From Desulfurococcales archaeon (GTDB lineage Archaea; Thermoproteota; Thermoprotei_A; Sulfolobales; NBVN01), in assembly GCA_027023255.1 (NCBI GenBank), contig JALVVU010000007.1, positions 6,888-70,887 on the forward strand: a DNA stretch of 64,000 bases, read 5' to 3'. Both the position numbers and the translations under genes were made by a program. Below the pieces are notes generated by a model. It saw nothing but the letters and a program-made list of their open reading frames with translations. It made no database searches and was not told the origin of the DNA. This document shows positions 2,181 to 62,780 of this stretch, piece after piece. The first letter of the stretch is position 1, and each line of letters starts with the position of its first letter.

Positions 2181-3656
2181 CTATAACTTTATTATGCGCT
2201 CAGCGTTTGTGAGTGTGTAGATTAATGGAGCTATGAACATCAGTAACCATAAACCAGTCGCGTAATTACCTAAGATAATGTTGAGGATCATCATTCCCAC
2301 TACATACGCTAGGAAGATCTTCTCTTCTAGGCACCTACTGACCAGCGCGCTCTCTGACTCACCTTTCGGCGTGACTCTGTAGCTATACCGATTCCGCAGT
2401 AAACCAATTACCGTGTACGCCAGCACTATTGGTGACAGGCTTATCGTGAATGATGATGATGAACCCATCGTACGTATAGTTAAGGATCTTGACAACCCGA
2501 CCTCCCTTAGGGAGGAGTAGAAGGAGTAACCATAAAGTCCAATAAGTACTAGTAGGAAGGCGGCAGGCACTACCCCTAGAAGCATTATGTCCTGCCTCAA
2601 AAGTAAGGCAAGTGCCGGGATGACTATGCCTGACAGGGCTAGCAGTGCATGCGGTACGTACTGCATTAGGAAGAGTGTGGCCTCCACTTTCTTAAGGAAG
2701 GGGTATGGGGAACTAAATATTCTTCTCCACCCGTTCTTCAGCGTCTCCATGGCACCGTAAGACCATCTAGCCTGCTGTAATTTCAGGGCCTCGTACCTGG
2801 AGGGTACCAGCACCTTAAGTGACACGTTATCTATGAATCCTACTCTGTACCCCTTCCACATGAGCTTAGTGCCTATGTGCATATCGTCCTGAACTATACC
2901 TTCATCCCATAACCCAACATTCAGTAAGGCGCCCCTATCAAAGGCTGTCCCAGATCCTAGAGGGAAAATGAAGAATCCCTTTGAAGCTCGCCCCCTGTAA
3001 AGCGTATCAACTAGGTACTTCATCGAGAAGCCCACCGCCCGCGCTAGCTTCGTTGATGTTATCCAGTAACCATCCCAGCGCCCCACGCAAGCTGCATTAC
3101 CCTCACGAACACACTTAACTAAGTTAGTTAGGTAACCAGGTTGCGGCCTCGTATCAACATCTAGGATAACGACTATGTCTCTAGCAAAGTTCCGGACAAC
3201 CCAGTTAAGAGCGGCGGCCCTGCCTTTCTGGCCCTCGGTTCTTATCATGAAACGCACCTTTAAGTTTAAATCTTGAGCTAATTTCTCAACACTTTTCTTT
3301 ATGGGTGCCGCCTTCTCGGGAGGATCATCGCAAACGAATACTACCTCATAATCACCGCGTAGCTCGCTTCTTAATCTCGTCATATGATTAATCATGCCAA
3401 GCATTAGGCTCTCAGGCTCATCCTTCACGGGAACTACTATCGTGACCCCGCTTAAGTTACCTCCACTATCAGCAACATTAAGCATCTGAGGATCCCTACT
3501 CCCTCTCCTTCCCTGGAAGTACAGGATGGCGTGAACGAGTCCCATTATAACCGGTGGCAGGAGGAGCGCAATGAACACTACTACCTGAGCAACACTACTA
3601 AAGAAGAGTTGCGCCCCCAGCACGCTCCTCACCCGGCAGGGACCCTCACTGTGCAT
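2181..3656 (-). CDS. Family 2 glycosyltransferase, membrane-integrated, processive (cellulose/chitin/hyaluronan-synthase-like)
   Basis: Motifs VTIVVPVKDEPE, ILDVDTRP, GSGTAFDRGAL and LQQARWSYG (Q-x-x-R-W). Hydrophobic segments lie at the N-terminus and in the C-terminal third. Confidence 0.8.
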   Translation of the reverse strand: MHSEGPCRVRSVLGAQLFFSSVAQVVVFIALLLPPVIMGLVHAILYFQGRRGSRDPQMLNVADSGGNLSGVTIVVPVKDEPESLMLGMINHMTRLRSELRGDYEVVFVCDDPPEKAAPIKKSVEKLAQDLNLKVRFMIRTEGQKGRAAALNWVVRNFARDIVVILDVDTRPQPGYLTNLVKCVREGNAACVGRWDGYWITSTKLARAVGFSMKYLVDTLYRGRASKGFFIFPLGSGTAFDRGALLNVGLWDEGIVQDDMHIGTKLMWKGYRVGFIDNVSLKVLVPSRYEALKLQQARWSYGAMETLKNGWRRIFSSPYPFLKKVEATLFLMQYVPHALLALSGIVIPALALLLRQDIMLLGVVPAAFLLVLIGLYGYSFYSSLREVGLSRSLTIRTMGSSSSFTISLSPIVLAYTVIGLLRNRYSYRVTPKGESESALVSRCLEEKIFLAYVVGMMILNIILGNYATGLWLLMFIAPLIYTLTNAERIIKL

Positions 3657-3813
3657 GCAGTAACCATGAATGTCAAGCCCTCACCACTCCACTACCTGTC
3701 ATTTGTCTTCTCGTTTAAATTTAAAAGGTAATTATCGCGAATGAGAGAAATCAGGGAATAATGGGTAAGCCTATTTTAGGAACCTCGTAGACGTTTGATT
3801 AGGTGCTAACTTC

Positions 3814-6335: not shown

Positions 6336-6438
6336 TCCACAGTAACGCTTTTGGCATGACGTTATGGACGGCTCCGCCGCTAACTATGTTAAAACTTAAT
6401 TCTTTCCAGAAATCCCTTAGATATTAGGGTGAGATAGT

Positions 6439-7422
6439 ATGAGGACCTTAACTAAGTTGAAGGTATCGATGTTGACGACCTTAGCATTCCTTATTGGCTT
6501 ATCAACACTTATACTCACCGCGCTATTTACTTACGTGCTTACCCCCACGGCCGGATTATCGACTGTTCTTGTCCTCTCCTTAGTGTTTGTTATAGGTATA
6601 CATGTGCTTCAGTGGCTTGTGGGTCCGAAGATAATCGAGATGGCATACAACGCTGAGCCAATCATGGGCGGGAGGTATGCATGGGTTGAGGAGTTAATAG
6701 CGCGCATTGCTCGGGCCTCCAACCTAGGTTTCATTCCGAAGGCAATGATAGCCCATGTTGACGTGCCTAACGCGTTTGCTTACGGCAACAGGCTCACCGG
6801 GTACAAGGTAGCTGTTACTGAGGGCTTACTCCGCATAGCACCCCCAGAGGAAGTCGAGGCTGTCTTAGCGCATGAGATAGGCCACATAAAGCATAGGGAC
6901 GTTGAGCTAATGATGGTTATCAGCATTCTTCCGGCACTTATATTCTGGCTTGGGAGAGTACTCATGTACTTTGGCTGGTTTGGCGGCGGGGATAGGGAGG
7001 GTGAAGCATCGATCCTTCCCATCATCGGAGCTGTCCTCATGGGTGTGGCGTTCCTCTTTAACTTCGCCGTACTTTACGTGAGCAGGTTACGGGAGTACTA
7101 CGCAGACGCACACGCCGCCCTAACCGTGCCTGGCGGGGCTAGGAAGCTTCAGCGGGCACTAGCTAGGATACTCGTAGCGAGCGGTGAGTTGAAGGCGTTC
7201 GCGCCCAGTAAGGTCGCGTCCGCGAGTAAGTTTAAGGCATTCTTAATAGCGGATCCTGAGGAGGGTATTGAGGTGCGTGGATACGGCATCATCGATATTG
7301 ATGAGGTTGTTGAGTGGATTAAGTCACAGCCTAGGTTAGTGCCTACCGAGATATTCATGACTCATCCGGACCCGGCGAAGAGGCTGAGGTTCCTAGATAC
7401 GCTTGCCTCGGGAGCTACATGA
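6439..7422 (+). CDS. htpX: HtpX-like M48 zinc metalloprotease, membrane-bound
   Basis: HEIGHIKHRD (HExxH) sits between TM segments. GGTGA (6428-6432) lies 6 nt upstream of the ATG. Confidence 0.85.
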   Translation: MRTLTKLKVSMLTTLAFLIGLSTLILTALFTYVLTPTAGLSTVLVLSLVFVIGIHVLQWLVGPKIIEMAYNAEPIMGGRYAWVEELIARIARASNLGFIPKAMIAHVDVPNAFAYGNRLTGYKVAVTEGLLRIAPPEEVEAVLAHEIGHIKHRDVELMMVISILPALIFWLGRVLMYFGWFGGGDREGEASILPIIGAVLMGVAFLFNFAVLYVSRLREYYADAHAALTVPGGARKLQRALARILVASGELKAFAPSKVASASKFKAFLIADPEEGIEVRGYGIIDIDEVVEWIKSQPRLVPTEIFMTHPDPAKRLRFLDTLASGAT

Positions 7423-8194
7423 GCATGGATAGCTTCGTGTACACCTTTTCCGGCACGAAGGGAAGAACGTGTCGGGTTGTTTTCGGAGGGAGTACCTTAC
7501 CTGCCTTAACTACCTTCATTACTTCATCCTTCGTTAATCCCCTCCGCACCAGTACGTAGTCAATTTCATCTTCCTTAAGATCCTTAAGGGCATCTTCAAG
7601 CAGTCCATACCACGTCATGGTTAGCTTGCCCATTCCGGCTAACTTATCAAGCACCTTAACGACCTTCTTCTGTCCCTCTAACCAGCCGCCAAGTTTGAAG
7701 TACTTGCCGTTCTTTCCTAACATTATGAACGCGCACTCCCACTCACCGACCTTACACTTCCCCGACTCAACACTCTTTATCGCGTCCTCACCGTCCGTCC
7801 CGGTCTCTATGTTCACCCCAACCTCATTAATGAGTTCCAGGAATTCTCCTGCATCCCCTTTGAATCCAGGGTACCATGTGTACACGCGGACCTCGGGACT
7901 GAAGTAATTGATTATTATGGCCGGAACCTTTCTAGCTCCTAGCTTCTTAAGAGCTGCCCATCGATGATGTCCGTCAACTATTAGGTACTTGTTTGTCCCC
8001 GGAACAGGAGCCGCTATTATGGGCATATCGACAGCACCGAGCTCGAGGATCATGTCTAGCAACGCGTTGAGTCTTTCATGGATTATCTCCTCGTGTGGTA
8101 ATAGGTCGTTAATATTGAGAAGTGTGGGTGATACTTTTCTCTTGGGTATGCTATACTTGGGTATCTTAACGCGCACCTTAGTACTTTGTCCCAA
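7415..8194 (-). CDS. ParB/sulfiredoxin-fold protein; candidate ADP-dependent free serine kinase (SerK-like)
   Basis: LLPHEEI and IVDGHHRWAA are ParB-N-type motifs. Its size (~260 aa) and position next to serA and a class V aminotransferase resemble the SerK described in Thermococcus kodakarensis. TTG start with GGTGA 6 nt upstream. Confidence 0.55.
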   Translation of the reverse strand: MGQSTKVRVKIPKYSIPKRKVSPTLLNINDLLPHEEIIHERLNALLDMILELGAVDMPIIAAPVPGTNKYLIVDGHHRWAALKKLGARKVPAIIINYFSPEVRVYTWYPGFKGDAGEFLELINEVGVNIETGTDGEDAIKSVESGKCKVGEWECAFIMLGKNGKYFKLGGWLEGQKKVVKVLDKLAGMGKLTMTWYGLLEDALKDLKEDEIDYVLVRRGLTKDEVMKVVKAGKVLPPKTTRHVLPFVPEKVYTKLSMLM

Positions 8195-8303
8195 TAACGG
8201 TCACCTACATCATTTTCATTTAGCTATGTAGCATGCGTCCCCTTTACTAATAATGTATTTTTAATGCATTTGACAAAAAAGCCATTCCGTAGTTATTGCC
8301 TTC

Positions 8304-15651: not shown

Positions 15652-15754
15652 TGGTGGGGCCGCGGGGATTTGAACCCCGGACCACGGGGGTTCCTGCCGT
15701 CTTCCGTGTGAGCGGACCCAAGCCCCGCATTCTCCCAAGCTAAACTACGGCCCC
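15652..15754 (-). tRNA. tRNA-Pro (anticodon UGG) with ~26-nt intron after position 37; CCA encoded
   Basis: Manual fold of the reverse complement: GGGGCCG-TA-GTTT..GAAT-G-CGGGG-CT-TGG-G-[intron TCCGCTCACACGGAAGACGGCAGGAA]-C-CCCCG-TGGTC-CGGGG-TTCAAAT-CCCCG-CGGCCCC-A-CCA. Confidence 0.85.
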
Positions 15755-18779: not shown

Positions 18780-18889
18780 TGGTGCGGGGGGTGGGATTCG
18801 AACCCACGCAGGCCTCCGCCAGCGGGTCTCCCCACCTAGCCGGAAAGGTCTTGAGCCCGCCCCCTTTGGCCGAGCTCGGGCACCCCCGC
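18780..18889 (-). tRNA. tRNA-Leu (anticodon CAA), class II long variable arm, ~22-nt intron at 37/38; CCA encoded
   Basis: Reverse complement: GCGGGGG-TG-CCC..GGG-G-GCGGG-CT-CAA-G-[ACCTTTCCGGCTAGGTGGGGAG]-A-CCCGC-TGGCGGAGGCCTGC-GTGGG-TTCGAAT-CCCAC-CCCCCGC-A-CCA. Confidence 0.85.
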
Positions 18890-24620: not shown

Positions 24621-24631
24621 GGTGATGCTGT

Positions 24632-25627
24632 ATGCCTAAAGTAATTGAGTGGGTAAACCCGAGCCCTGACGACATAGTTTGGAAGTACCCTAATGAAGTG
24701 ATTGAGTGGGGGTCAGTCCTAATAGTTAAGGAATATGAAGCAGCGGTCTTCTACAGGGACGGTAAGGTTTACGATGTGTTTAGAGCTGGTAGGCACGTGT
24801 TAACCACGGCTACGTTACCGCTACTCACTAAGGTGCTATCGAAGGTAGCTGGGTATGAGAGAGTACCCTTCGTCGCCACAATAATTTTCATCTCGTTAAA
24901 GCAGTTCCGAGGCCTTTTTGGCGGGAGGACGCAAACAACTGAGTTAGCGCCCCTAATGTTCAGGGGCTCATACTACTTCCGAATAGCGGATCCGGCTGTA
25001 TTCGTTAATGAGGTTGTTGGAGGGCAGTCGTTATTCACTACCGACGACATTAACGACTATCTCAGAGGGTACATGAATGAGTTACTGATGAAGTACCTAT
25101 CGACGTACAGCATCGTTGACGTATTCATGAATCTCGACAGGGTAAGCACAGAGGTGAAGTTAAGAGTCATGGAGGACTTCAGGAGGCTGGGGCTCGAGCT
25201 AATTGACGTTAAGTTTGAGGGTGTCGACACTACTGAGGAGTGGCGTCAGAAGATATTCTGGATCAGGCAAACCGGTAATGCCGCTATGGTGCTTCAGATG
25301 GAGACCGTTAAGTCCGTGGCCTCCGAACTAGGCAAGTCACCTGGAGCAGCAACGGGGACAGGAATAGTTATGATACCTCCCCTACTTTACGGTCCTTACG
25401 CGCAACAACAGCCTCCGCCACCGCAGCAACAACAGCAACAGGGTGTAACCACCCCACAACCCCAGGCACAAAGGAAGTTCTACTGCCCTTACTGTGGTGC
25501 AGAAGTACCGCTTAACGCTAAGTTCTGCCCGAACTGTGGTAAGAGACTTAAGTGGTGCCCTAACGGACATCTAGTGCCGTTGGAAGCAAGGGTGTGCCCC
25601 TTCTGCGGTTATAAGTTCCCTGAGTGA
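24632..25627 (+). CDS. SPFH/band-7 superfamily protein of the YdjI / 'virion core protein-like' type, with Gln/Pro-rich linker and C-terminal double zinc ribbon
   Basis: N-terminus IEWVNPSPDDIVWKYPNEVIEWGSVLIVKEYEAAVFYRDGKVYDVFRAGRHVLTT. Linker QQQPPPPQQQQQQGVTTPQPQAQ. C-terminus CPYCGAEVPLNAKFCPNCGKRLKWCPNGHLVPLEARVCPFCG. Confidence 0.8.
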   Translation: MPKVIEWVNPSPDDIVWKYPNEVIEWGSVLIVKEYEAAVFYRDGKVYDVFRAGRHVLTTATLPLLTKVLSKVAGYERVPFVATIIFISLKQFRGLFGGRTQTTELAPLMFRGSYYFRIADPAVFVNEVVGGQSLFTTDDINDYLRGYMNELLMKYLSTYSIVDVFMNLDRVSTEVKLRVMEDFRRLGLELIDVKFEGVDTTEEWRQKIFWIRQTGNAAMVLQMETVKSVASELGKSPGAATGTGIVMIPPLLYGPYAQQQPPPPQQQQQQGVTTPQPQAQRKFYCPYCGAEVPLNAKFCPNCGKRLKWCPNGHLVPLEARVCPFCGYKFPE

Positions 25628-31296: not shown

Positions 31297-31372
<76 letters not shown>

Positions 31373-31437
31373 TCCAGTCATTTGGATTAGTGAACCCTTA
31401 TTTTCTTTTCTACCCTTTGCTCTTTAGGTGAGTTAGG

Positions 31438-32814
31438 CTGACACACGTTAAACTGATCGCGTCTCTAGGGCCCGCTTCTAAAGATTTAGAAACAGTTATC
31501 AAGTTAGTTAACGCCGGCGCGTCGGGGTTCAGGATAAACTTCGCTCACGGAGATAGTAATTTCTGGAAAACCCTCGCTGACAACGTTAGGAAGGCTGAGG
31601 AAATAACAGGCAAGCCTTTGACGCTAATAACGGATCTCGAAGGATCCTCCATAAGGTTAGGTGAGTTACCTGAGCCCCTAACCTTGAGGAAGGGTGATAT
31701 CGCCAGGTTAGTTCCGCAGCAGAGAGCCGAAGAGCCGGGCACGATACCATTCCCAAACGAGAGAGTACTTTCTGAGCTTGAGGAGGGAGACATCCTAGTC
31801 ATGGATGATGGTAGGGTTAGGTTAAGGGTTGTTAAGGTTTCAGGTGATGAAGTTGAAGTCGCAGCCCTAACTGACGCTGTCATTAAGTCTCGCAAGGGAG
31901 TTGTTGTTCAGAACAAGGAGTTCGACCTCCCGGTCCTAACCAAGAAGGATTTAGAGGATATCAAGTTCGCCTGTAGTGTTGGGGCTGACTACATAGGGCT
32001 CAGCTACGTTAGGAACGCAGATAACGTGCGGGTATTGAAGGAACTGCTTAGGGAGATGAGGTGCGATGCCGGAGTAGTGGCTAAGATAGAGACAAGGTCA
32101 GCGGTCAAGAATGTTGAGGACATAGCGCATGTAGCTGACGTGATACTGGTTGCTAGGGGGGACTTAGGAATGAACTTTGGACTAGAGGAGATACCGAGGA
32201 TTCAAAGACGAATTGTTGAGGCCTCGCTGAGAATAGGTAAGCCCGTCATAGTAGCGACGCAGCTCCTGGAATCCATGGTTGAGAACCCCGTCCCGACGCG
32301 GGCTGAGGTTGTTGATACTTACGTTGCCGTGTCTGAGGGCGTTGACGCGTTAATGCTAACCGGGGAAACAGCCGCTGGCAAATACCCCGTTGAAGCAGTG
32401 AAGTGGTTACGCCGGATAGTTAGTAAGGCTGAGGCCAGTGAAAATGTGAGGACGTACAGGGAGGGTGGCCCACTGAAGAGAAGGTACGCTAAGGGTGTTG
32501 CCGAACTTGCAGAGGACTTGAACGCCAAGATAATAATATACTCATCAACGGGGGTCACCGCCCGCCACCTAGCATCAATAAGACCCAACGTGCCTTTCTA
32601 CGTGGCTGTGCCTAACATAAAGGTCGCTAGGTCAATAAACATACTGTGGGGAGTGAATCCTATAATAACTCCCACAAAGAACCATGAAGAAGGGCTTGAG
32701 GAGGCTTTCAAGAAACTCATCAGGATGGATGAGGTCTCAATAGGCGATCTAATAGTAATGACCTACGGCATGAAAGGTGAGGAGCAGGTAATCAAGGTTA
32801 GGCGCTACGTGTAA
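31438..32814 (+). CDS. pyk: Pyruvate kinase (start proposed at CTG 31438; track ORF begins at TTG 31618)
   Basis: Track ORF motifs: VAKIETRSAV, ILVARGDLGMNFGLEEIP, ATQLLESM, MLTGETAAGKYP. The frame is open from 31432 and encodes THVKLIASLGPASKDLETVIKLVNAGASGFRINFAHGD upstream of the first canonical start. Confidence 0.85.
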   Translation: MTHVKLIASLGPASKDLETVIKLVNAGASGFRINFAHGDSNFWKTLADNVRKAEEITGKPLTLITDLEGSSIRLGELPEPLTLRKGDIARLVPQQRAEEPGTIPFPNERVLSELEEGDILVMDDGRVRLRVVKVSGDEVEVAALTDAVIKSRKGVVVQNKEFDLPVLTKKDLEDIKFACSVGADYIGLSYVRNADNVRVLKELLREMRCDAGVVAKIETRSAVKNVEDIAHVADVILVARGDLGMNFGLEEIPRIQRRIVEASLRIGKPVIVATQLLESMVENPVPTRAEVVDTYVAVSEGVDALMLTGETAAGKYPVEAVKWLRRIVSKAEASENVRTYREGGPLKRRYAKGVAELAEDLNAKIIIYSSTGVTARHLASIRPNVPFYVAVPNIKVARSINILWGVNPIITPTKNHEEGLEEAFKKLIRMDEVSIGDLIVMTYGMKGEEQVIKVRRYV

Positions 32815-32892
32815 CGTTACCGAAACCTGAAAATGATTTTATACTGAACCACATTATGTGAAGCGGCTGAAGGGGAGGCGAGGTGAGTCAAA

Positions 32893-33708
32893 CTGACCAA
32901 GAAAAGAAAAAGAAGAGATAAGGGGGCAGGTAAGGTAATCGTTAAGAAGAAAGCAAGGATTTCACCCTCTATAAGAACTAGGAAAGTTAGGTGGGACCTA
33001 ATTATAGCTGCTGCAATAGTAGTATTCATAGCTGTAGGCGTGATCTACCTCGTAACTCACGCATCGAGGGAAACACCCCATCAACTAAAGCCAGCCACGG
33101 AGAATCTTTACAAGGCGCTTGAGGAAATATACTTCACAAACAAACCCAATCCTAACGCGACCCTAGACGTATTCTACGGCGTCAGAGGTAATGTTAACCT
33201 GAACGGCACGGTCTTCGGCGTCAAGGACATCATGCAGTTCAGAATATTCTTCTACAACAGGACACTCAAAGTACCAACAAATGAGAGCGGAACTTCCGGC
33301 AACAAAACCAAAATAGTCGTGTTGAGTGGGCACGGCGTCATACCCCTCGGTGCCTACTACATCCAACCAGTGTTAGACGTATTGGGCTTCACAAGTAAAG
33401 TTGAGAATATCTCAATGCTCCTAGTTAACGTTGAAAACCTCAAAAACCATAACGTAAGTGTAGAGACAAAATACCTCGGGCACGACAAGGTCACAATACC
33501 CACGGTTAAGGAGCCTTTAGATACCGTGAAGGTACAATATACATACACTATTAAAGTACACAACAAGACTTACCACGTTAACGCTACCGTATGGTACGAG
33601 ACTAAGTATAAGTTCCCTGTAAAGGCAGTCATAAATATTAATGGGTATACCTTGACGTTTAAGCTTGAGTACGCTGAGTTAACGTACTTAAGTCAGCGAA
33701 GAATCTGA
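32893..33708 (+). CDS. Type II membrane-anchored, N-glycosylation-rich extracellular protein (start proposed at CTG 32893; track ORF begins at GTG 33040)
   Basis: Nine N-x-S/T sequons in the track ORF. The in-frame upstream region (open from 32887) encodes a K/R-rich segment plus the only TM helix (WDLIIAAAIVVFIAVGVIYLV). There is no ATG/GTG/TTG before 33040. Confidence 0.5.
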   Translation: MTKKRKRRDKGAGKVIVKKKARISPSIRTRKVRWDLIIAAAIVVFIAVGVIYLVTHASRETPHQLKPATENLYKALEEIYFTNKPNPNATLDVFYGVRGNVNLNGTVFGVKDIMQFRIFFYNRTLKVPTNESGTSGNKTKIVVLSGHGVIPLGAYYIQPVLDVLGFTSKVENISMLLVNVENLKNHNVSVETKYLGHDKVTIPTVKEPLDTVKVQYTYTIKVHNKTYHVNATVWYETKYKFPVKAVININGYTLTFKLEYAELTYLSQRRI

Positions 33709-33770: not shown

Positions 33771-34631
33771 GTGAGTATGGCCTCAAACCCGCCCTCAAGT
33801 AAGATAAGGATTCACATGCCGCGTGAATACTTAGAGAGGAAAAAGAAGCTCCAAGAACGAATGTCTAAGATAAGGCACAAGATAGTCATAATGTCTGGCA
33901 AAGGTGGCGTCGGGAAATCCTTCATAGCGTCCAGCCTTGCACTAACCTTCCAGAAGCTAGGTTACAGAACCGGGCTCATGGATATTGACTTCCATGGCCC
34001 CTCCGCCCCGAAGATGCTGGGATTAAGGGGAACTAGGCTAATCATGTCGGATGAAGGTATAGAGCCTGCCCTAGGACCTCTAGGACTTAAGGTGATGTCC
34101 CTAGACTTCCTACTCCCAGACGATGATTCACCAGTGATATGGCGTGGGCCAATCAAGTCTACCGCGATAACACAGTTCGTGACAGACGTTAATTGGGGAG
34201 AGCTTGATTTCCTAGTAATTGACATGCCACCAGGCACTGGTGATGAAGCACTAACCGTTGCTCAGGAGCTTCCGGAAGTGGACGGAGCCGTATTTGTGAC
34301 TATCCCTTCTGAGGTTTCGCTCCTCGTTGTCGGTAGGTCAATCGTCTTTGCTAGGAGGGTAAACATAAGACCCTTAGGAGTTATAGAGAATATGTCTGGC
34401 TTCCTCTGCCCTAAGTGTGGCTCGTTCTACAGAATCTTCGGTAAGAGCTCCGGTAGGGAAATAGCTAGCAAATATGGAATAGAGTTCCTCGGTGAAATAC
34501 CGCTAGACCCGAGGATAGCTGAATGCAATGACGCTGGAACACCATTCATACTGAAATATCCGGACTCTGAAGTGTCTAAGCGTTTTGCGGAGGCTGCCCA
34601 GCATCTAGTCAAGATAGTTAGCAATGTGTAA
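33771..34631 (+). CDS. Mrp/NBP35/ApbC-family Fe-S cluster carrier ATPase
   Basis: Deviant Walker A MSGKGGVGKS, DMPPGTGDE, and CPKCG cluster-binding cysteines. Confidence 0.85.
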   Translation: MSMASNPPSSKIRIHMPREYLERKKKLQERMSKIRHKIVIMSGKGGVGKSFIASSLALTFQKLGYRTGLMDIDFHGPSAPKMLGLRGTRLIMSDEGIEPALGPLGLKVMSLDFLLPDDDSPVIWRGPIKSTAITQFVTDVNWGELDFLVIDMPPGTGDEALTVAQELPEVDGAVFVTIPSEVSLLVVGRSIVFARRVNIRPLGVIENMSGFLCPKCGSFYRIFGKSSGREIASKYGIEFLGEIPLDPRIAECNDAGTPFILKYPDSEVSKRFAEAAQHLVKIVSNV

Positions 34632-34705: not shown

Positions 34706-36031
34706 ATGATATTTACTTGGGATGTAAACATGGGATTCGAATGGTATAACGAGTTCGTAGACAGGAACCATAAGCCAAGCAGCGATGAATTAATTGCGGT
34801 GTTTAAGGCTAAGCCTGCTGAAGGTCTCACAATGGATGACATAGCAGGAAGGATCGCGTCAGAGAGCAGCGTCGGTACTTGGACCACGCTAACGACGCTA
34901 AAGCCACACGTACGTAAGATCATGGCTAAGGCATACGTTGTCCGTGAGGACGGCTTAATTAAGGTAGCGTACCCTCTAGACCTCTTTGAACTTGGGTCAA
35001 TACCCCAGCTCTTCAGCTCAGTACTGGGTAACATCTTCGGCATGAGAGCCATAAAGAGCTTGAAAGTGCTTGACATAATGTTCCCTGAGAAATACGTCAA
35101 GTCATTCCCTGGACCCTCATTCGGTATTAGCGGCGTCCGCGACAAGCTTAAGGTCTATAAGCGCCCAATACTTGCGACAGTGCCTAAGCCTAAGGTCGGA
35201 CTAACTTCAGAAGAGTACGGTGAAGCAGCGTATGAGATCCTAAGCGGCGGGATGGACCTAGTGAAGGACGACGAGAACCTAACTAACCAACCATTCAACC
35301 GCTTCGAAAAGAGGCTAGCTGCCGTGATGAAGGCCATAGATAAGGCCGAGAAGGAGACCGGTGAGAAGAAGGGATACCTATGCAACATAACGGCACCAAC
35401 GCTGGAGGAGATGCTACGTAGGATGAAACTTGTCGCTGATTACGGTAACGAATTCATAATGCTTGACATCCTGACGGTCGGCTGGGCAGCGGTTCAGACG
35501 GCTAGGGAGCACGCAGCCGACTATAAGCTAGCAATACATGCGCACAGGGCATTCCACGCAGCATTTACTAGGCCGAAAGAACATGGAGTGAGCTTCTACC
35601 TAATAGCTAAGATATCAAGGCTTGCTGGAGTGGATCACATCCACATAGGGACTAACGTAGGTAAAATGGAAACGGACCTGAAGGAACTGAAGCTAACACA
35701 GAACGTCATAACTCAGGAAGACTTCAACCCCGAAGGTGACGAGACAAAGGAACCACAGAAGTGGTATGGCCTCAAGCCTGTCCTCCCCGTAGCATCAGGA
35801 GGGCTCCATCCTGGCGTACTACCGCAACTGCTTGACTTCATGGGTTCCGACATACTAATACAGGTAGGGGGAGGCGTTACAGGGCACCCGAGCGGTCCCA
35901 AGGCCGGAGGAATAGCGGTGCGTCAAGCCCTAGAGGCATACTATAGTGGCGTCCCGCTAGAAGAGTATGCTAAGACGCATAAGGAGCTAAGGGAAGCACT
36001 AGAGAAGTGGGGTAAGGTTAGACCTGAGTGA
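34706..36031 (+). CDS. rbcL: Ribulose-1,5-bisphosphate carboxylase/oxygenase large subunit, archaeal type III
   Basis: Collinear with my memory of the Thermococcus kodakarensis type III enzyme: ESSVGTWTTL, GNIFGM, VPKPKVGL, VKDDENLTNQ, AIHAHRAFHAAFTR, ASGGLHPG, VGGGVTGHPSGP, EYAKTHKELREALEKWG. The start may be ATG 34730. Confidence 0.9.
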   Translation: MIFTWDVNMGFEWYNEFVDRNHKPSSDELIAVFKAKPAEGLTMDDIAGRIASESSVGTWTTLTTLKPHVRKIMAKAYVVREDGLIKVAYPLDLFELGSIPQLFSSVLGNIFGMRAIKSLKVLDIMFPEKYVKSFPGPSFGISGVRDKLKVYKRPILATVPKPKVGLTSEEYGEAAYEILSGGMDLVKDDENLTNQPFNRFEKRLAAVMKAIDKAEKETGEKKGYLCNITAPTLEEMLRRMKLVADYGNEFIMLDILTVGWAAVQTAREHAADYKLAIHAHRAFHAAFTRPKEHGVSFYLIAKISRLAGVDHIHIGTNVGKMETDLKELKLTQNVITQEDFNPEGDETKEPQKWYGLKPVLPVASGGLHPGVLPQLLDFMGSDILIQVGGGVTGHPSGPKAGGIAVRQALEAYYSGVPLEEYAKTHKELREALEKWGKVRPE

Positions 36032-61576: not shown

Positions 61577-61819
61577 TTACTTGAGCGGGGTTATAAGTGT
61601 TGTTAGTGTTTGAGTTATGGTTATTTCGAGTCCCTCGTCTAGGGCTTTTAGTTTTATTGCTTTTTGTGGGCATATTGCTTCGCAGCCGCGACAGTATATG
61701 CAGTTGTTTTCGTTTATTATTAGTTTCTGGTTCACTATCTGGAAAACATTTGTTGGGCAGGTTTCCTCGCATAGGCCGCACAGGTTGCAGTTATTGTTTA
61801 CCTTGACTTCCACTTTCAT
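61577..61819 (-). CDS. 2x[4Fe-4S] dicluster ferredoxin-type protein
   Basis: CNLCGLCEETCP and CIYCRGCEAICP. Its start overlaps the 3' end of the upstream KaiC-like gene by 29 nt. Confidence 0.8.
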   Translation of the reverse strand: MKVEVKVNNNCNLCGLCEETCPTNVFQIVNQKLIINENNCIYCRGCEAICPQKAIKLKALDEGLEITITQTLTTLITPLK

Positions 61820-62636
61820 GCCTTGCTTCCTCCCCCGTTATCGCTGCTTTGTAGGCTTCAGCCTCTTTCAGCCTTTCCCTGACAAGGGCTGCTAGCTTTG
61901 CTGGATCGACGGCGTGGACCCCATCATCGATTATTGCGTAAGGTACCCATAACGGATTAGTTGGTAATCCCCTCATTTTCTTGGCCATGAGTTGCTTCAG
62001 CGGTATGCCTAACTCTATTAGGTTTGGCTCTATGCGCGTCGCTATAACGCCGTCGACAAGATATTCTAGATGTGCCGCGAGCTCCTCTAGCACTGTGGTG
62101 TTAGTGTGTAGAATCATCACTATCGTGGCTCCCTTACCCTTAGATATTATTGCCCGCATCGACTTAATGAACTCTAATACCTGCATCATCTCAAAACGGA
62201 ACATTAACTCGTTTATCGAGTCAATAACAACGAGGCTAACAACGTCGTCACTAGCTGGCGGAACCTCCTCATGCAGGGCATAAAGCATGCTGTTCAGGTC
62301 GTCGAGACGCTGCTCCCTCGTAACGCCCTTCACTGCCCTCTTTAACTTACCTAACCTGAAGCTGAAGCAGTCAATTATCTTGAACTTGCCCTCATCAATG
62401 AACTTATCTAGCCCCCACCCAAAGTTCGTGAAGAGCTCTATTAGTGCGTCGGGAGAATCATCGAGGTTAACGTAGGTTACATAACCACCTCCCTTCAGCA
62501 CGTTCCACGCTATGTGCGCAGCCAAAACCGACTTACCTGTTCCCGGCGCCCCCGTGATAGCTACCGTGGCGCTTCTAGGGAAGCCTGCAGGTAACGCGTA
62601 ATCTAGGGGCTCAATACCTGTTTTGAATGCCTTAAT
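61791..62636 (-). CDS. KaiC/RecA-superfamily single-domain ATPase (start proposed at ATT 62636; track ORF begins at TTG 62525)
   Basis: The Walker A ITGAPGTGKS and the preceding KAFKTGIEPLDYALPAGFPRSATVA lie upstream of the first canonical start in an open frame. Walker B is VVIDSINEL. Confidence 0.75.
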   Translation of the reverse strand: MKAFKTGIEPLDYALPAGFPRSATVAITGAPGTGKSVLAAHIAWNVLKGGGYVTYVNLDDSPDALIELFTNFGWGLDKFIDEGKFKIIDCFSFRLGKLKRAVKGVTREQRLDDLNSMLYALHEEVPPASDDVVSLVVIDSINELMFRFEMMQVLEFIKSMRAIISKGKGATIVMILHTNTTVLEELAAHLEYLVDGVIATRIEPNLIELGIPLKQLMAKKMRGLPTNPLWVPYAIIDDGVHAVDPAKLAALVRERLKEAEAYKAAITGEEARHESGSQGKQ

Positions 62637-62780
62637 GACCCATCACCCTCCTAGAAAGGACTTCTCACGTAAACTAACTTAACTACCTAGAATAAAACAC
62701 TAACTTCCAAGACGCGTCTATTGCATAGCTCAATGAATTATTAATTAAGCTCCCTAGGTTAGGTTAGTGGTGCTGTCATC

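Follow-up and report, generated by a model that had tools for sequence, protein, structure and literature searches.

Where does translation of the pyruvate kinase (PK) gene begin when its reading frame holds no ATG, GTG or TTG ahead of the conserved N-terminus of the enzyme? The question arises in a 64,000-nucleotide (nt) stretch of an uncultured, heat-loving Desulfurococcales archaeon (GenBank contig JALVVU010000007.1, positions 6,888 to 70,887; hereafter the window), in which the PK frame on the forward strand is open well upstream of its first canonical start codon. The evidence assembled below, all of it comparative, indicates that the PK mRNA is probably translated from CUG 31438 by near-cognate initiation directed by a Shine-Dalgarno (SD) sequence. 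Two further genes pose the same problem: the gene that follows PK, here called gene 2, and a KaiC-like ATPase gene.

The PK start region of the window reads ...ctctttAGGTGAgttaggCTGacacacgttaaactgatcgcg... and its SD sequence itself supplies the in-frame upstream stop, TGA 31429-31431, after which the frame continues GTT AGG CTG ACA CAC GTT AAA CTG ATC GCG, with the codons from ACA onwards encoding T-H-V-K-L-I-A. Between this stop and the CTG there are only GTT and AGG, with no canonical start codon, and the first ATG, GTG or TTG of the frame is TTG 31618, located 62 codons past the stop and 60 past the CTG. The part of the window carrying both the SD and the CTG is AGGUGAGUUAGGCUG, or AGGUGAGUUAGGCUGACACAC as RNA. 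In the list of open reading frames (ORFs), PK is entered from TTG 31618 as a product of 398 amino acids (aa). The original prediction had placed GGTGA at 31427-31431, CTG at 31438-31440 and the first canonical start at 31618, in a frame open after 31431, and these coordinates are exact.

The codons upstream of TTG 31618 encode a recognisable part of the enzyme. Peptides within residues 1-60 include LIASLGPASK, DLETVIK and INFAHGDSNFWK, and in the stop-to-stop translation the Pfam PK barrel (PF00224, E=3e-84) covers residues 5-323, matching profile positions 3-328 of 328; the full-length barrel is present, including its N-terminal strand. The C-terminal alpha/beta domain is present as well, with PF02887 (PK_C, E=1.1e-19) matching residues 353-450. 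The alignment with 3QTG, the nearest solved PK structure, also begins at query residue 5, bearing out the earlier claim that the roughly 60 upstream codons are the conserved PK N-terminus. The G-F-R-x-N-x-x-H motif (the GFRINFAHG segment) occupies codons 30-37, upstream of TTG codon 61, and its G30, F31, R32, N34 and H37 are unchanged in 17 homologues. We take the Arg and Asn of this motif to contribute to the phosphoenolpyruvate and K+ sites, as is general for PK structures.

We compared the PK start with those of related loci fetched from other assemblies (numbered L001 onwards), amongst which the nearest species representatives are the uncultured Desulfurococcales metagenome-assembled genomes (MAGs) L008 and L009. 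Codon 1 is CTG in all relatives of at least 79% PK identity, which form six lineages together with the window. Before the conserved Lys these read TGA GTT AGG CTG ACA (window and L008, 98% PK identity), TGA GTT AGA CTG (L009 and L093, 95%), TAG GTG AGT GGG CTG (L094, 94%), TAG GAA CTG ACT (L005, L006 and L095, 91%), TAG GTG AGC GTG CTG (L001, L010 and L096, 90%) and GAG GTG GAT GCC CTG CCT (L007, 79%). A single codon is kept at only 4 of the 40 invariant Leu positions of PK across the six lineages, and codon 61 reads TTG, TTG, CTG, TTA, TTA and CTG. Indels have set the spacer between SD and CTG to 5, 6 or 7 nt, substitutions have accumulated in addition, and everything downstream of the CTG is in frame. 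An intergenic alignment of seven lineages shows conservation of the neighbouring tRNA, of a block reading AACCCTTATTTT and of the GGTG core of the SD, which is AGGTGA in six of the seven and GAGGTGGA in L007.

PK lacks a canonical start in the window, L008, L009/L093 and L005/L006/L095, which derive from different samples, assemblers and species. The fetched loci provided 108 PK N-termini, and those without a canonical start all belong to this clade; in more distant relatives (at most 65% identity) an ATG, GTG or TTG stands 2-3 codons ahead of the conserved Lys of K-[VIL]-IASLGP, approximately where the CTG stands in the PK of the window. This comparison supports CTG 31438 as the sensible initiator, as had been proposed. 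The upstream codons also evolve as coding sequence. Ratios of nonsynonymous to synonymous substitution (dN/dS), calculated by the Nei-Gojobori method for codons 1-60 against the rest of PK in four relatives, were 0 (L008), 0.08 (L009), 0.03 (L005) and 0.06 (L001) for codons 1-60, indistinguishable from the 0.04-0.07 of the remaining gene at dS 0.2-1.2. The 458-codon ORF is intact in six lineages, with no stops or frameshifts upstream, and codons 1-60 are under purifying selection.

The arrangement at PK is shared by other genes of the window. Among the window's ORFs of more than 200 codons, a gap exceeding 30 codons between the upstream stop and the first canonical start is seen in just three, and all three display GG-TGA, in which TGA is the in-frame stop, followed by two codons and then a near-cognate codon. 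We counted GGTGA motifs on both strands for which the codon at spacer 6 opens at least 100 codons (n=11). Seven carry a canonical start there, and these include ATG 6439, ATG 24632 and, on the minus strand, TTG 8194, the three sites that the original prediction had named at matching coordinates; the others are GTG 37771 and, on the minus strand, ATG 21719, ATG 9242 and ATG 1933. The remaining four codons are CTG, CTG, ATT and GAC. The set ATG/GTG/TTG/CTG/ATT, with a summed background of about 7%, is thus found at 10 of the 11 sites, for which our own arithmetic gives a binomial probability of roughly 1e-10. At other GGTGA spacers the canonical share is 0-17%, and no comparable excess is seen at spacers 3 and 9 of the same ORFs.

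A 140-kb ENA scaffold (JOHN19-1_SAMN10217875_METAG-scaffold_28) contains the window, and about 18 kb of its flanks (L173 and L174) were added to this analysis. The 38 starts called in these flanks comprise 22 ATG, 11 TTG and 5 GTG, mostly with GGTG upstream; the modal distance past GGTGN is 6 nt by inspection, with a range of 4-8 nt. Two more canonical GGTGA-N6 starts lie in the flanks, so that the SD distance of PK, gene 2 and the KaiC-like gene is that of nine canonical GGTGA starts, seven in the window and two in the flanks.

Gene 2 follows the PK stop at a distance of 78 nt, and its start region reads GAGGTGA gtcaaa CTG(32893) ACC AAG AAA, again with a 6-nt spacer. Its product has a basic N-terminus, a single hydrophobic and putatively membrane-spanning stretch and no Pfam match, and its first canonical start, GTG 33040, falls within the hydrophobic stretch. 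The CTG is present in seven assemblies (the window, L008, L009, L011, L094, L005 and L001), and in the sister genus (L007 and L014) the homologous codon is TTG. The KaiC-like gene, on the minus strand, begins GGAGGGTGA tgggtc ATT(62636) AAG GCA TTC AAA ACA GGT, 6 nt past GGTGA 62647-62643, and its Walker A motif, GAPGTGKS, is upstream of the first canonical start, TTG 62525. L088 (94% identity, from a JGI metagenome) has an identical start region, GGTGAtgggtcATT, and relatives begin M-[EK]-I-[RK]-[ST]-F-K-T-G. At the homologous Ile, L092 and L089 have ATC or ATA, which stands 5 nt past GGTGG; each also has an in-frame GTG abutting the SD, and their starts are ambiguous.

The PK problem had been said to recur at 32893 and 62636. 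At 32893 it does, with CTG 6 nt past GGTGA 32882-32886; at 62636 the recurrence is also real and also 6 nt past GGTGA, but the codon there is ATT and not CTG. The accompanying argument, that recurrence favours near-cognate initiation over random error, is now stronger because the homologous codon of gene 2 is a called TTG start in L007 and TTG in L014. At the KaiC-like gene we also observed an out-of-frame ATG (62643-62641, minus strand) inside the SD, reading ATG GGT CAT TAA. Dropping one G from this region gives ATG GTC ATT AAG, which matches the N-terminus of the relatives, and a 1-nt insertion may have displaced the original ATG start.

GGTGA is a familiar archaeal SD motif, and a simple sequence of events would account for these starts. 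AGGUGA would pair with the 3' end of 16S rRNA, setting the P site of the small subunit 6 nt downstream, the modal spacing between SD and start codon in this organism. Initiator Met-tRNA would then be accepted on CUG, which differs from AUG at the first position, as on GUG and UUG. The PK protein would accordingly read Met-Thr-His-Val-Lys, with Met as its probable first residue, and gene 2 (CUG 32893) and the KaiC-like gene (AUU 62636, mismatched at the third position) would start likewise. The weaker start may serve to tune expression.

Other ways of reading the locus must be weighed against SD-directed initiation at CUG. The CUG could be used independently of any SD if the transcript began at or just before GGUGA, the ribosome loading from the 5' end and taking the first acceptable codon. 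The only TATA-like element, 31398-31404, is about 23 nt before GGTGA, and by the usual spacing of archaeal promoters this predicts a 5' untranslated region of only about 10 nt. Gene 2, however, has the same geometry 78 nt behind the PK stop, and seven canonical starts of the window, plus two in the flanks, stand exactly at GGTGA+6; since canonical starts and gene 2 share this register, the motif appears to position the ribosome, and an SD role is favoured. On leaderless mRNAs, moreover, non-AUG starts work poorly in the archaeal system in which they were tested (Haloferax), and we consider 5'-end loading improbable. Initiation at a different non-canonical codon, namely AGG 31435, GTT 31432 or the downstream ATC 31456, is similarly doubtful and has quite a low probability. 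AGG and ATC are each one base away from ATG, and ATC or ATA is conserved at PK codon 7; but the codon before the CTG varies amongst relatives (AGG, AGA, GGG, GAA, GTG), whilst ATC 31456 is 24 nt from the SD, well beyond the 4-8 nt of called starts, and its Ile belongs to the conserved PK strand K-[VIL]-I-A-S-L-G-P.

A canonical start might also be restored after transcription, either by frameshifting from the GTG within AGGTGA or by C-to-U editing that converts CUG into UUG. In L094, L001 and L007 the SD's GTG does lie in the PK frame, and in the window GTG AGT TAG meets its stop one base before the CTG. The shift required would nonetheless be +1 in the window, +2 or -1 in L005 and 0 in L094; with a spacer of 5, 6 or 7 nt amongst relatives, the GTG embedded in the SD falls in frame 0, +1 or +2. 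The PK relatives share no slippery sequence, and the fixed frame relation of a programmed frameshift of the prfB kind is lacking amongst them. In gene 2 the out-of-frame GTG ORF extends past the CTG. Editing could not turn AUU into a canonical start, and we know of no mRNA editing of this kind in archaea, leaving recoding or editing very unlikely. Nor does it seem credible, save at a very small probability, that PK is truncated or dying, with the 398-aa product from TTG 31618 as its only product, or none at all, and the upstream codons a relic. The 398-aa form is what gene callers produce and the sole form in public collections, but dN/dS of 0-0.08 upstream, in a frame intact in six lineages at dS up to saturation, excludes a pseudogene. 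TTG 31618, which the original prediction had itself disfavoured, is CTG or TTA in relatives, and starting there would drop the invariant G-F-R-x-N-x-x-H. Lastly, there is a negligible chance that the start codon was misread or misassembled: CTG without a canonical start recurs in the window scaffold, L008, L009, L093, L005, L006 and L095, from different samples and assemblers, and seven distinct 398-aa calls fall in one protein cluster. The orthologue alignment that had been suggested as a check thereby excludes an artefact of assembly.

Several observations weigh against initiation at the CUG of PK, or against its wider relevance. One conserved Leu codon is weak evidence on its own, given that 4 of 40 are conserved anyway. 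In L001 the CTG is immediately preceded by a canonical GTG, and L094 and L007 have an in-frame GTG within the SD, such that CTG is obligatory only in the window, L008, L009/L093 and L005/L006/L095. Three genes in 64 kb are a small sample, and the flanks of about 18 kb yielded no further clear near-cognate start, just an ambiguous ACG. The 64-kb window contains no rRNA gene, and the initiator tRNA is not among its tRNAs.

Table 1. Coordinates and supporting evidence for the start regions of PK, gene 2 and the KaiC-like gene, canonical comparators and elements upstream of PK.
Feature	Position	Strand	Evidence or remark
SD AGGTGA of PK, core GGTGA 31427-31431	31426..31431	+	TGA 31429-31431 is the in-frame upstream stop of PK
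CTG, proposed PK initiation codon, 6 nt past GGTGA	31438..31440	+	Kept in 6 lineages, spacer 5-7 nt
PK coding sequence as proposed, 458 codons + stop	31438..32814	+	Pfam, homologues, 3QTG, dN/dS
TTG, first canonical in-frame start of PK, codon 61	31618..31620	+	Used by gene callers; unconserved (codon comparison)
SD GAGGTGA of gene 2, TGA in frame	32880..32886	+	Core GGTGA 32882-32886
Gene 2, proposed start CTG 32893-32895	32893..33708	+	Homologous codon TTG in L007/L014
SD GGTGA of KaiC-like gene, within GGAGGGTGA, TGA in frame	62643..62647	-	Sequence
KaiC/RAD55-like ATPase coding sequence, proposed start ATT 62636-62634	61791..62636	-	Pfam KaiC from residue 5, profile position 2
Comparator GGTGA-N6-ATG, canonical start	6428..6441	+	ATG 6439
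Comparator GGTGA-N6-ATG, canonical start	24621..24634	+	ATG 24632
Comparator GGTGA-N6-TTG, canonical start	8192..8205	-	TTG 8194
tRNA-Thr(CGU), divergent from PK	31297..31372	-	ARAGORN, Rfam; 100% conserved in relatives
TTATTTT, AT-rich element, candidate TATA box, inside the conserved AACCCTTATTTT block	31398..31404	.	Unchanged in 7 lineages

Upstream of PK, a gene for tRNA-Thr(CGU) on the other strand is separated from the PK SD by 55 nt. Between them, the AT-rich TTATTTT element keeps a distance of about 26 nt to the tRNA 5' end and about 23 nt to the SD; we infer that it is a promoter element (TATA box), which may be shared by PK and tRNA-Thr or be bidirectional. Its position suggests a 5' end of the PK transcript near the SD, about 10 nt upstream of the CTG. 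Rfam revealed no RNA element in the PK leader, the sole other match being sub-threshold and on the strand opposite the tRNA. Downstream of gene 2 are a Mrp/ParA-type ATPase gene (33771-34631, plus strand) and a homologue of the RuBisCO large subunit (34706-36031, plus strand), presumably of archaeal form III. The order PK, gene 2, ParA is kept in all relatives examined, and RuBisCO comes next in the closer ones (L001, L005/L006). Elsewhere in the window, Rfam identified two intron-containing tRNAs missed by ARAGORN, at 15655-15754 and 18783-18889 on the minus strand, which by reading of their anticodon loops are tRNA-Pro(UGG) and tRNA-Leu(CAA); the variable arm of the tRNA-Leu is long.

A few further ORFs have a comparable layout. 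The ambiguous ACG of the flanks belongs to a PadR-family gene (L173, 18905-18952, minus strand) with GGTGA-N6-ACG, where a TTG 12 codons on still gives a complete PadR domain; initiation at this ACG is possible but unsupported. A GT2 glycosyltransferase ORF at 3674 (region 3656-3685 of the window, minus strand) opens directly after GGTGA; its spacer-6 codon is GAC, its spacer-9 codon is ATT and an ATG follows six codons later, whilst a public call starts it at a GTG 14 codons into the frame. An ATT at GGTGA+6 of the Mrp/ParA homologue in L056, from another lineage, was considered as a fourth case and rejected, as an in-frame GTG GTG is directly upstream. When long ORFs with late canonical starts were sought in the fetched loci L001-L092, hits beyond the three gene families looked spurious and were mostly on contigs of distant MAGs. 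One sister-genus MAG (L089, 16109-18292, minus strand) carries a MoxR-type AAA ATPase gene with an intein (Pfam Intein_splicing).

These starts have direct consequences for annotation. Prodigal considers only ATG, GTG and TTG (PMC2848648), and gene finders restricted in this way shorten PK by 60 residues and lose both the Walker A motif of the KaiC-like protein and the basic N-terminal region of gene 2, or else invent false N-terminal extensions. Public data display this pattern: the 90% cluster of PK holds seven distinct 398-aa calls, including that of the present sequence, together with mis-calls of 435, 442 and 461 aa, and for the KaiC-like gene the call is 244 aa long and lacks Walker A in every fetched related assembly that lacks an upstream in-frame GTG or ATG. 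The CTG- or ATT-start forms of PK, gene 2 and the KaiC-like protein are absent from the public protein collection, and metabolic reconstructions or structure predictions could mistake the PK of these MAGs for a defective enzyme.

If the proposed starts are correct, they are natural and conserved examples of an archaeal ribosome left with CUG or AUU as its only possible start. Archaeal start-codon fidelity has so far been examined mainly in vitro, and the starts of PK, gene 2 and the KaiC-like gene offer substrates for asking how SD positioning and aIF1 set start-codon stringency. A broader possibility, which we put forward tentatively and hold to be rather doubtful, is that start selection is relaxed across the lineage, with a few percent of genes, including central metabolism and ATPases, depending obligatorily on CUG or AUU, perhaps also ACG or AUH, behind a strong GGUGA 5-7 nt upstream. 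Were this so, all four NUG codons would be usable starts in an archaeon, implying either that aIF1, the initiator tRNA or rRNA has changed specifically in this lineage, or that weak starts serve regulation.

Near-cognate initiation is an established exception in bacteria, where infC and pcnB of Escherichia coli start at AUU and where translation table 11 lists CTG and ATT as alternative starts. N-terminal proteomics has revealed non-canonical starts in Deinococcus deserti (PMC2830850), although CUG and AUU starts are few across prokaryotes (PMC5622118). As in the bacterial cases, the present genes are conserved or essential, have no AUG, GUG or UUG, carry a codon with one mismatch behind a well-placed SD and are missed by gene finders. 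They differ in belonging to an archaeon, with the eukaryotic-type factors aIF1, aIF1A and aIF2 instead of IF3, in showing no evident autoregulatory logic, and in numbering three of about 60 genes in a single window.

The closest parallel amongst archaea is Aeropyrum pernix, also a member of the Desulfurococcales, which has a GGTG ribosome-binding motif (PMC2848648) and whose mapped starts are 52% TTG, 28% ATG and 20% GTG in the figures that PMC5911459 quotes from Yamazaki 2006. Because of this motif and the 52% of TTG starts, a P site tolerant of first-position mismatches is plausible for the group. The two organisms thus share a GGTG-type SD and a high tolerance at the first position; unlike in the present case, only ATG, GTG and TTG figure in the A. 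pernix data quoted in PMC5911459, whereas here CUG, the fourth NUG codon, and AUU are added. A literature search, incomplete in its coverage, returned no published case of an archaeal gene whose sole start is CTG or ATT.

In Haloferax volcanii, ribosome profiling placed about 30% of putative alternative initiation sites at near-cognate codons, which its authors set aside to guard against false positives (PMC7261190). This indicates that archaeal ribosomes can initiate at such codons, but the sites there are alternative or putative, whilst those described here are the only available starts of conserved full-length genes. CUG is also a reported near-cognate start in human cells (PMC4705826), and archaeal start selection uses homologous factors; eukaryotic initiation relies on scanning and Kozak context, in contrast to the apparently fixed SD distance seen here. 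Taken together, these comparisons support the view that PK, gene 2 and the KaiC-like gene add a new case, both conserved and recurrent, to a known kind of exception, a near-cognate start behind a strong SD, in a lineage of the Desulfurococcales.

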